64,000 bases of DNA from Nannocystis bainbridge (GCF_028368995.1 NZ_JAQNDL010000001.1:512001-576000), one strand, 5' to 3'. Shown: positions 43,826-45,520, counted from the stretch's first letter. Notes: a model not told the origin generated them from the sequence alone. Program-made: numbers and translations.

Positions 43826-43913
43826 GAGCCTGCCTGAGAAACGCGCGGGCGAAGGCGCGGGGCCGTGGGGATCTGGTTGACGGCGGGCTCGGAGCGGCGG
43901 AGCGGGTCCCTTG

Positions 43914-43919
43914 TATGTT
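43914..43919 (+). promoter_or_regulatory. -10 box of IS circle-junction promoter (TATGTT)
   Basis: Lies 18 bp from TTGACG (45293-45298) once the ends are joined at CT. Confidence 0.65.
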
Positions 43920-43924
43920 CCTCG

Positions 43925-44281
43925 CACGAGGTGAGCCCGACGCGGCGAAGCCTCCAGAACTTCGGGGAGGCCGAGGGTCCCTGGGGCTTCGAGCCCGGTA
44001 GCGAGTGTGGTCCCCCGAAGTTCGATCTCGATTTTTCTTGGATAATTGTGGGGCTGCGGACTCAAATCGGCCCCACCGCTGCCGGGTTCGTAAGCTGTCG
44101 TACCGCCGTTTCATCCTTCGCAGGGCGAGACTTCTCGGAGGACTTCGAGAGGCCGTGGGTCCCTGGGGCAGCGAGCCCGCGCGTGAGACGAGGCCCCGAA
44201 GTTCGAGTTTGACCTCAAGAGCCCGGACAACTGCATGAGCGTCAGCCAGCTCGAATCCTACAAGGGTGGGCGGTAGGTCAA
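43925..44281 (+). ncRNA. Predicted bridge RNA region: two target-binding loops (43957-44023, 44140-44204) and one donor-binding loop (44209-44281)
   Basis: Stem/guide/hairpin/guide/stem architecture seen three times; guides complementary to the element's own donor and target; transcript ends are estimates. Confidence 0.8.
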
Positions 44282-44324
44282 GCGAAGCAACGAGCAGGAC
44301 AGCCACGGAAGGGAAGAACGACAC

Positions 44325-45296
44325 ATGAAGCGCGTGTACTTCATCGGGATCGATGTCGGGAAGGACAGGTTGGACGTCGCCGTCAAGGCGGTGGACCCGA
44401 GCCAAGCCTCGCAGCCGACGAAGCGAGCTCACCAGGCATGGGCGTCGGCCAACAACGAAGCAGGGATCGAGGCGCTGATCGAGCGCCTCCAGCAGCTCGA
44501 TCCCGTCCTCATCGTGCTCGAGGCGAGTGGAGGCTACGAGCGGCGTGCGTACCTCGCGATGCGACAGGCAGGCCTTCGCGCTGCGTTGGTGCAGCCCAAC
44601 CATGCCCGGGCGTTTGCCCGTTCGATGGGGCTCCTGGCGAAGACCGACAAGATCGACGCCCTGATGCTGGCGTACTTCGCCGAGGTGCGACGACCCGAGC
44701 CGGCGATGTTGCCGACCGAGAACCAGAGCAAGATCGCGGACCTCCGAGGGGTGCGCAGCGACCTCGTCGACACCCGCACCGCCTACAACAACCGCCTGAA
44801 GACGGCGAGCGAGACGACCCGAAGGCACCTTCAGCCGCTCCTGGAGGAGCTGGAGAAGTCGATCGCCAGCGTCGAGGCCGAGCTCAAGCAAGCGGTCGAG
44901 GGCAACCCCGACGACGCCAAGCGAGCTGCGCTCCTGCGAACGGCGCCGGGGATCGGGCCGATCATCGCCGCCACGCTCGTCGGGGAGCTCCCGGAGCTCG
45001 GTCGCCTGGGCCGCCGCGAGATCAGTGCCCTCGTCGGCGTCGCTCCAATGAACCGCGACAGCGGCCGCCAGCACGGCAAGCGCTCCGTCAAGGGTGGCCG
45101 CAACGAAGTCCGCGACAAGCTTTACATGGGCGCTGTGAGCGCGGCGAAGTGGAATCCGCCGATCCGGGCGCTCTACGAGCGCCTCACGGCCGCCGGGAAG
45201 CTCTACAAGGTCGTCATCACCGCCTGCATGCGCAAGCTGATCGTCATCCTCAACGCTATGGTCGCTCATGACAGGCCCTGGTCGAATCCGACTTGA
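44325..45296 (+). CDS. IS110 family transposase/recombinase
   Basis: DEDD RuvC-like: GIDVGK, LEASGGY, KTDKIDA; Tnp domain [13 protein letters not shown] catalytic Ser, RKL. Confidence 0.97.
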
Positions 45297-45298
45297 CG
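45293..45298 (+). promoter_or_regulatory. -35 box of IS circle-junction promoter (TTGACG)
   Basis: Overlaps transposase stop codon, points out of the right end. Confidence 0.65.
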
Positions 45299-45520
45299 CC
45301 GCAACACAACTGCTCGCTACGGCGGGGCCCTCCCAGGCGACGTGCTCGTCGCCCTCGACTACGAGAGACATCTGTCCTTAAGAACAGAAGTGTCTCGTGC
45401 ACCACGGACGATGGCTCCTGCGCGCGGTTGCCTGCGGCCCGTCCCGCCTGCGTACCCGCAGAACGCCCCAAACCCGCCCCTGTCGTTTCCTGGCCCAATT
45501 CGGCGTTCTGCGGGGATTTC

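Follow-up and report, generated by a model that had tools for sequence, protein, structure and literature searches.

The 64,000-nt stretch of Nannocystis bainbridge DNA analysed here (the window; GCF_028368995.1 NZ_JAQNDL010000001.1:512001-576000) carries an insertion sequence (IS) at 43912-45312. We read it, with a probability of about 0.88, as an intact, recently active IS110-group element that encodes a bridge recombinase of the IS621 type and in which the first target-binding loop of the left end (loop A) is the working target loop. Sequence comparison makes it a new member of the IS110 bridge-recombinase family. As a member of that group it is ordinary and its guide lengths are unremarkable. 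Its left end in two genomes retains a diverged second target-loop module (module B), which gives the predicted left-end RNA a three-loop layout not found described in the main texts searched, a structural variant of the known bridge RNA.

The element, its boundaries and its putative junction promoter

The host genome (11.05 Mb in 5 contigs, GC 0.715) is myxobacterium-like. The 323-aa gene product has an N-terminal DEDD RuvC-like domain (PF01548, E 7.5e-23) and a C-terminal Tnp domain (PF02371, E 8.1e-18), and reaches 216 bits against a cut-off of 140 with the NCBIfam model NF033542, 'IS110 family RNA-guided transposase'. The best match in the PDB is ISCro4 (9t56, E 7.6e-33), together with IS621 (8wt6, E 1.6e-32). 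Residues D10, E66, D108, D111 and S246 align with the catalytic D/E/D/D/S of IS621 and also with those of ISCro4. The composite active site of IS621 is described as D11, E60, D102 and D105 with a serine (PMC11208158); the numbering of the deposited chain is that of the paper plus two. The element therefore has the DEDD domain, serine Tnp domain, CT core and, at the DNA level, the guide-encoding left end of the IS110 group. All features are listed in Table 1.

Table 1. Features of the IS110-group element (positions counted from the first letter of the window)
Feature	Position	Strand	Evidence
IS110-group insertion sequence body, 1,401 bp	43912..45312	+	3 full identical-ended genomic copies; ~90% identical copies in a genome of the same genus (G038)
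Left target half-site GGGTCC, window copy	43904..43909	+	same as 5' side of the internal loop in modules A and B
CT core, left copy	43910..43911	+	single CT in empty paralogous sites; 2-letter overlap at metagenome joints
TATGTT, putative -10 box	43914..43919	+	18 nt from TTGACG after end joining
5' stem-loop	43921..43956	+	position as canonical 5' stem-loop (PMC11208160)
Target-binding loop A	43957..44024	+	outgroup model 30.2 bits; exact guide-flank match; covariation with sites
Loop A left guide GGGTCCCT	43975-43982	+	matches window-copy flank exactly
Loop A apical hairpin	43983-43996	+	
Loop A right guide GTAGCGAG	43998-44005	+	matches window-copy flank exactly
Spacer between A and B	44026..44123	+	98 nt, GC 0.56
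Target-loop-like module B	44140..44205	+	outgroup model 19.4 bits; paralogue of A; adjoins donor loop
Module B 5' guide GGGTCCCT	44157-44164	+	
Module B hairpin	44165-44178	+	
Module B 3' guide GCGCGTGAG	44179-44187	+	
Donor-binding loop	44207..44283	+	guide words = right end and reverse complement of left end
Donor-loop stem TTGACCT/AGGTCAA	44209-44215/44275-44281	+	
Left donor guide ACAACTGC	44227-44234	+	
Donor-loop hairpin	44236-44253	+	TGAGC 44236-44240, GCTCG 44249-44253
Right donor guide TACAAG	44259-44264	+	
GG after right donor guide	44265-44266	+	
IS110-family RNA-guided recombinase gene, 323 aa	44325..45296	+	domain, family-model and PDB matches
TTGACG, putative -35 box	45293..45298	+	overlaps recombinase stop codon
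Left donor arm ACAACTG = IS right end	45306..45312	+	same in all three genomic copies; = left donor guide word
CT core, right copy	45313..45314	+	genomic copies and empty paralogous sites
Right target half-site CGCTAC	45315..45320	+	= reverse complement of loop A right guide

Three full copies with identical ends are present in the genome: the window copy and two others (L002 and L003). They differ from one another at 0-4 of 1,405 positions, the two differences within the gene both fall at third codon positions, and similarity stops directly outside CT...CT. The insertion sites are GGGTCC-CT-CGCTACG (site 1, window copy), GGGTCC-CT-CGCGCCC (site 2, L002) and GGGCCC-CT-CGCTCGC (site 3, L003). 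In another genome of the genus, G038, three full and two defective copies have about 90% DNA identity to the window element. The closest protein, 90% identical, comes from a Nannocystis radixulma record (L018), the next relatives are 56-58% identical and the rest fall below 50%. The G038 copies may be the same as L018 and a further locus, L049, and are counted once. Taking the two genomes together, CT is found at both junctions in 7/7 complete elements, and a truncated G038 copy (C6) has it at the left junction. The left half-site is GGGTCC in seven of the eight copies and GGGCCC in the other.

A short distance past a family-2 glycosyltransferase gene (PF00535), the window copy lies inside a member of a dispersed repeat about 100-180 bp long. 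At least five other members of the repeat in the genome are uninterrupted over the insertion point and have one CT, reading GGGTCC-CT-CGCCAC or a close variant. Contigs from two of four soil-metagenome runs join 43909 to 45313, which skips 1,403 nt with 2 letters shared, and a comparable joint, longer by three letters, occurs in a third run. These joints may be genuine empty alleles, or they may be relatives' paralogous repeats. The glycosyltransferase gene is kept at 82-87% in five genomes of the genus, where the alignment ends at about 43785-43820. No orthologous empty site was found in these five genomes because nothing of the right flank occurs within 1.5 kb. One G041 match to CTTGTATGTTCC was considered as a further IS copy and rejected as such. 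Nothing informative emerged from the ORFs that lie between two inverted target-repeat copies on C4.

These results bear out the boundaries given in a preliminary description of this DNA, which placed the right end ACAACTGCT at 45306-45314 and the left end CTTGTAT at 43910-43916; both strings are in place, and the three copies, the empty paralogous repeats and the metagenome joints all define the same ends. The number and kind of differences among the copies also fit its view of the element as 'intact, probably active'. The exact 18-mer of the empty allele, proposed there as a check, was not found. Neither does the free 13-mer GGGTCCCTCGCTA occur in the genome, where the closest free sites have CGCCAC in place of CGCTAC, a one-base difference.

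A promoter across the joined ends is described for IS621 (PMC11208160), and the boxes of the window element agree with such a split promoter and are putative. Between TTGACG and the right CT there are 14 nt, so that in the joined ends TTGACG and TATGTT would be 14+2+2 = 18 nt apart, the distance that had been claimed. The left-end TGTAT is kept in relatives. Left end, donor word and right end could be located by pattern in the upstream regions of 53 of 143 relatives, the other 90 being dropped where the pattern failed. Among the 53, TTGAC is present in the right end of 50 and absent in 3, and its spacer to the TAT of TGTAT is 17 nt in 48, 18 nt in one (L018) and 13 nt in one. Like L018, the window element has the 18-nt spacing. 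No sigma-70-like consensus promoter was found by consensus scan of the linear sequence. An internal promoter for B and the donor loop was considered as well and dropped, since the consensus scan gave none.

The predicted left-end RNA and its guides

The left end (43912-44324, 413 nt) is made up of a 5' stem-loop, module A, a 98-nt spacer, module B and a donor loop. In place of the canonical arrangement of one target loop followed by one donor loop, two target-loop modules precede a single donor loop. Both modules are built alike: a long basal stem leads through an internal loop to the apical hairpin GGGGC...GAGCCC. They are paralogues: 43944-44025 can be aligned with 44124-44206, and 65 of 86 columns are identical. 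The second module does not appear in the preliminary description. The donor loop appears as given there, with the stem TTGACCT/AGGTCAA, ACAACTGC, TACAAG and TGAGC..GCTCG, and its motif AGCCCGRACA..TGC is common to relatives.

Loop A has a predicted fold of -39.3 kcal/mol (z -3.6), with 0/200 shuffles as good. The corresponding values are -32.8 kcal/mol (z -2.1, 7/200) for module B and -27.0 kcal/mol (z -1.6, 15/200) for the donor loop. The 5' stem-loop alone (-12.7 kcal/mol) and the left end folded as a whole (z -0.98) are no better than shuffles. A covariance model was built from nine target-loop modules taken from single-loop relatives only, none of them from the window element. Over 43000-46500, on both strands and with filters off, this outgroup model finds A (30.2 bits, E 1.3e-6) and B (19.4 bits, E 6.6e-4), and the next match has 9.9 bits. 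A scan of 43700-45500 with Rfam 15 at E up to 1 returned no bridge-RNA family, the sole match being a chance miRNA (E 0.16).

By the polarity rule for IS621, the left guides read as the top strand does and the right guides pair with that strand (PMC11208160). The guides of the window element follow this rule. In loop A, the 5' side GGGUCC-CU and the 3' side GUAGCG-AG equal the flanks of the window copy over 6+2+6 positions. In the donor loop, ACAACUG-C and UACA-AG equal the IS ends over 7+1 and 4+2 positions, the left donor guide reaching just the C of the CT core. The four guide words occur singly in 257, 199, 100 and 1,056 of 20,000 composition-preserving shuffles of the 413-nt left end and all together in 0/20,000; the real left end also has them in the right order and polarity. 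A chance origin of the match is excluded.

The guide lengths, 6+2, 6+2, 7+1 and 4+2, are ordinary for IS110. The 'long right-guide pairing' of the preliminary description is modest, at 6 nt plus the core for the right target guide, beside 6 for the left target guide and 7 and 4 for the left and right donor guides. The GG that follows the right donor guide complements CC at target positions 6-7, and fits the handshake guides described for IS621 (PMC11208158). In loop A the UG after the core-pairing AG can pair with donor positions 6-7 by wobble only, and the A opposite left-target position 7 is matched by 0/8 sites.

The right guide of loop A differs among lineages, and the sites change with it. 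In this genome the guide is GGUAGCGAG and the right half of site 1, CGCTAC, matches it exactly, while 3 and 4 contiguous bases match at sites 2 and 3. Three G038 copies (C3, C5 and C7) have GUUCGCGAG and lie at CGCGAC, CGCGAC and CGCGGA, of which five, five and four bases match; a fourth, C9, has GUUAGCGAG and lies at CGCTTT, of which four match. Guide and sites covary, in a clean natural instance of target reprogramming. The change is of the kind shown experimentally for IS621.

The transposition cycle can be pictured on the model of IS621. Excision would join the right end to the left around the CT core, as the IS621 literature suggests, and the joined ends would place TTGACG 18 nt from TATGTT and so turn on transcription of the left end. 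The resulting RNA would hold the 5' stem-loop, loop A, the spacer, module B and the donor loop. The recombinase, with D10, E66, D108, D111 and S246, would bind the loops; the donor loop would pair with the joined ends ACAACTG-CT-TGTA and loop A with GGGTCC-CT-CGCTAC, and strand exchange at CT would insert the element. Weighing against this picture are the missing Rfam family match, the lack of a consensus promoter in the linear sequence, the short right-guide matches at sites 2 and 3, the unmatched A and the wobble-only UG of loop A, and the single core base reached by the left donor guide.

Module B as a possible relic, second guide or scaffold

Module B is under some constraint. It is 91% identical between the two genomes, whereas third codon positions reach 84% and the adjoining spacer 74%. 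Modules A and B are found in all G038 copies. The spacer between them aligns to the G038 copies at 74-75% identity, with gaps in 23-24 columns, and is replaced in one metagenome variant by 85 unrelated letters. Every copy has a T-run after loop A, within DNA that is about 70% GC.

One reading, to which we give slightly less than even odds, is that B goes back to an old segmental duplication of about 83 nt and is now a decaying relic, with A alone picking targets. Only loop A covaries with the sites, and B is less conserved than A (94-97%) and the donor loop (94-95%). In C9 and C6 the basal stem of B is damaged by two mismatches, and in one soil-metagenome variant the core is altered, with TT for CT in the B 5' guide. 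Exact duplications of the left end occur in the relatives L024, L025 and L056, and tandem non-coding repeats beside IS110 transposases are known (10.64898/2026.08.14.744561). Decay does not sit easily with a module that is clearly more conserved than the spacer beside it, that is present in every full copy of two genomes and in a third soil lineage, and whose hairpin stem is unbroken in all variants seen. Should B not work, it would be a dated example of how a duplicated guide region decays.

It is possible, and we hold it to be rather unlikely, that B is a second working target loop. The RNA or RNAs would then have two specificities that share GGGTCC-CT, with CGCTAC for A and C(G/A)CGCGC for B, and either loop would team with the donor loop. 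B fits the outgroup target-loop model and folds like A, and lies in the canonical place beside the donor loop, like the single loop of three relatives (L019, L134 and L135). Its conservation above that of the spacer and of third codon positions points the same way. So do its changes in the C3-type copies of G038, five of six of which fall at unpaired positions while the sixth turns G.U into G-C, and the soil-contig lineage that keeps A and B with the spacer replaced. Adjacency to the donor loop is not required, because in IS622 target and donor loops still function when expressed separately (10.1101/2025.05.14.653916).

Evidence from the insertion sites is divided. Site 2 (GT-GGGTCC-CT-CGCGC) fits B (GU-GGGUCC-CU, GCGUG-AG) over 15 positions with one G.U wobble, and fits A over 11. 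Among 11 genomic GGGTCCCTCGC sites the two that are occupied are the best match to A and the best match to B. However, B is clearly favoured at just one of eight sites, and C2:57254, a B site almost as good, stands empty. In G038 one perfect match to the B of that genome is unoccupied, and no copy lies at a GGTTCC half-site that would match the C3-type B. Targets of the B type occur at control frequency, 0-1 per genome. A one-base insertion in B after the core-pairing AG, the basal-stem mismatches of C9 and C6 and the TT of the metagenome variant also count against a second guide. A natural three-loop bridge RNA, with one donor loop and two diverged target loops that share a left half-site and differ in the right, is accordingly a tentative reading that we would not favour at present. 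If it were true, one IS would have two target addresses, and a new address could evolve without loss of the old. A working B would mean that nature has already built a multiplexed bridge RNA, and would suggest a route by which new targets are gained through loop duplication followed by divergence.

A role for B other than as a guide is improbable. B could be a scaffold or spacer for the donor loop, a decoy that titrates the recombinase, or a stem partner that controls loop display, since A and B have almost the same basal stem, so that the A 5' strand could pair with the B 3' strand. Some conservation of B and the T-run after loop A are consistent with such a role, and short RNAs of CazIS110-1 that contain only the target loop are abundant and active in one step (10.1101/2025.10.25.684509). 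The proposal is otherwise conjecture, and the fold of the whole left end, no better than shuffles, speaks against it.

Self-insertion of the kind that L056 suggests was also considered as the origin of the double loop and is not supported: the spacer aligns to the left end and 5' stem-loop with a score of 12, where the shuffle mean is 15 and 1,931 of 2,000 shuffles are as good.

Relation to known bridge RNAs and to relatives

Bridge RNAs have been described with one target and one donor loop, with diverse structures and with longer guides (PMC11208160, PMC11208158 and PMC13626964 among others), and 32,190 have been predicted (10.64898/2026.10.21.760802). Full-text literature searches, which covered main texts, did not turn up any bridge RNA that has two diverged target loops. 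Duplicated or extra loops were not found in the main texts of PMC11208160, 10.64898/2026.08.14.744561 and 10.64898/2026.08.31.748434.

Further elements with two loops were sought among relatives. The loop model was run over the loci of 160 relatives, 80 genomic and 80 metagenomic, and gave two same-strand matches upstream of the gene in two of them, L049, which is a copy of the window element, and L056, where an 87-bp segment is exactly duplicated. In L142 the second match is on the opposite strand. A genus-wide scan with the model gave no further two-loop elements and is blind to B, because B-type scores are below threshold at whole-genome scale. In metagenomes a DNA pattern search with the donor loop gave 0 matches, and a protein scan found no close relative; its best match has 58% identity, and it therefore supplies no further copies with flanks. 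A 63-nt self-match of 71% identity was seen in L140.

The architecture claimed for the element in the preliminary description, that of IS621, agrees with its sequence in the domains (PF01548/PF02371, NF033542), the aligned catalytic residues, the CT core, the guide loops and the TTGAC spacing in relatives. Like IS621, it encodes a DEDD and serine recombinase with five aligned catalytic residues (PMC11208158; PDB 8wt6). It also has the CT core, a predicted left-end RNA with 5' stem-loop, target loop and donor loop, the same guide polarity, a putative promoter split over the joined ends and an insertion in a repeated extragenic element (PMC11208160). Unlike IS621, to which the protein is similar at the family level only (E 1.6e-32), it has a putative promoter with a spacer of 18 nt and a host of 71.5% GC. 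The left end is 413 nt, compared with an RNA of about 177 nt in IS621 (PMC11208160), and is longer because of the second target-loop module and the 98-nt spacer. The element resembles ISCro4/IS622 (PDB 9t56), the best PDB match, in its two-domain recombinase, but IS622 is described with a single target loop (10.1101/2025.05.14.653916).

Closer at hand are L019, L134 and L135, from a Nannocystis MAG and metagenome contigs, with 56-58% protein identity. They share with the window element the ends CT-TGTAT... and ...ACAACTG-CT, the TTGAC box, the donor-loop motif and the target-loop hairpin GGGC..GAGCCC. Unlike it, they have one target loop, which adjoins the donor loop, and a left end of 207-224 nt before the gene start instead of 415 nt.

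Partial duplication of the guide-RNA region within an IS110 element is shared with L024, L025 and L056 and with units described in 10.64898/2026.08.14.744561, where non-coding units repeated in tandem, at 95% identity or more, are reported next to IS110 transposases. In L024, L025 and L056 the repeats are exact or near-exact, arranged head to tail, 60 and 87 bp long, and restart at CT-TGTAT. The two units of the window element, in contrast, are 76% alike, lie 98 nt apart, have different right guides and are common to two genomes.

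Left-end duplications in IS110 relatives

Exact duplications within the left end, the non-coding 5' part of the element, are found in three relatives of the IS110-group insertion sequence in the window (L024, L025 and L056), and in each the sequence restarts at CT-TGTAT, the left terminus with its core. The duplicated unit of L024 and L025 is 60 bp long and stops precisely where the left target guide with its CT does. That of L056 is 87 bp long and contains an entire target loop. The variant shared by L024 and L025 is present at two different loci and has therefore moved. From these duplications it looks as if the guide-encoding DNA acts as a target mimic in the element's own recombination. 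The region upstream of the gene of another IS110 relative, on a metagenome contig (L140), contains a direct self-match of 63 nt with 71% identity, 89 nt apart, which could be a further, diverged left-end duplication.

Coordinates of the features described (G000, genome under study; G038, same-genus genome; C, contig)
Feature	Location	Remark
Left-end duplication	L024:1237-1360	
Left-end duplication	L025:1237-1360	Gemmatimonadales MAG, as for L024
Left-end duplication	L056:1211-1400	
Self-match	L140, upstream region 143-294	
T-run	window 44024-44040	TTTTT
Internal-deletion derivative (L131)	G038:C7:356100-357900	
Truncated copy (L130)	G038:C6:656000-657600	
Antisense open frame	window 43803-45371	minus strand
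Dispersed repeat, host site	window 43806-43911 and 45313-45420	
Dispersed repeat, inverted pair	G000:C4:156613-156716 and 157882-157985	1.2 kb apart
Dispersed repeat, partial copy (L015)	window ~51719-51763	

Spacer, defective copies and antisense frame

A T-run lies nine bases 3' of module A and does not fit the terminator scan. It is kept as TTTT in every G038 copy, in DNA of ~70% GC, while the remaining spacer has diverged. The T-run may be where a short RNA comprising only the target loop ends. Two copies in G038 are defective. The first, an internal-deletion derivative of ~735 bp, has left-end positions 1-381 joined to 1028-1401; neither end is lost, the two target loops and the donor loop are retained, and the CT junctions are proper. 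The second is truncated and carries a deletion in the spacer.

An open frame of 522 aa runs antisense across the entire element. With the DNA at 65-70% GC, it is most likely spurious.

The dispersed repeat at the insertion site

The host site of the window copy is itself a dispersed repeat of ~100-180 bp, with at least six members in the genome under study, among them the inverted pair on contig C4 and the partial copy at another place in the window. It is much more numerous in two genomes of the same genus, with 45 matches in G038 and 18 in G036 (counting the orthologous gene hit).
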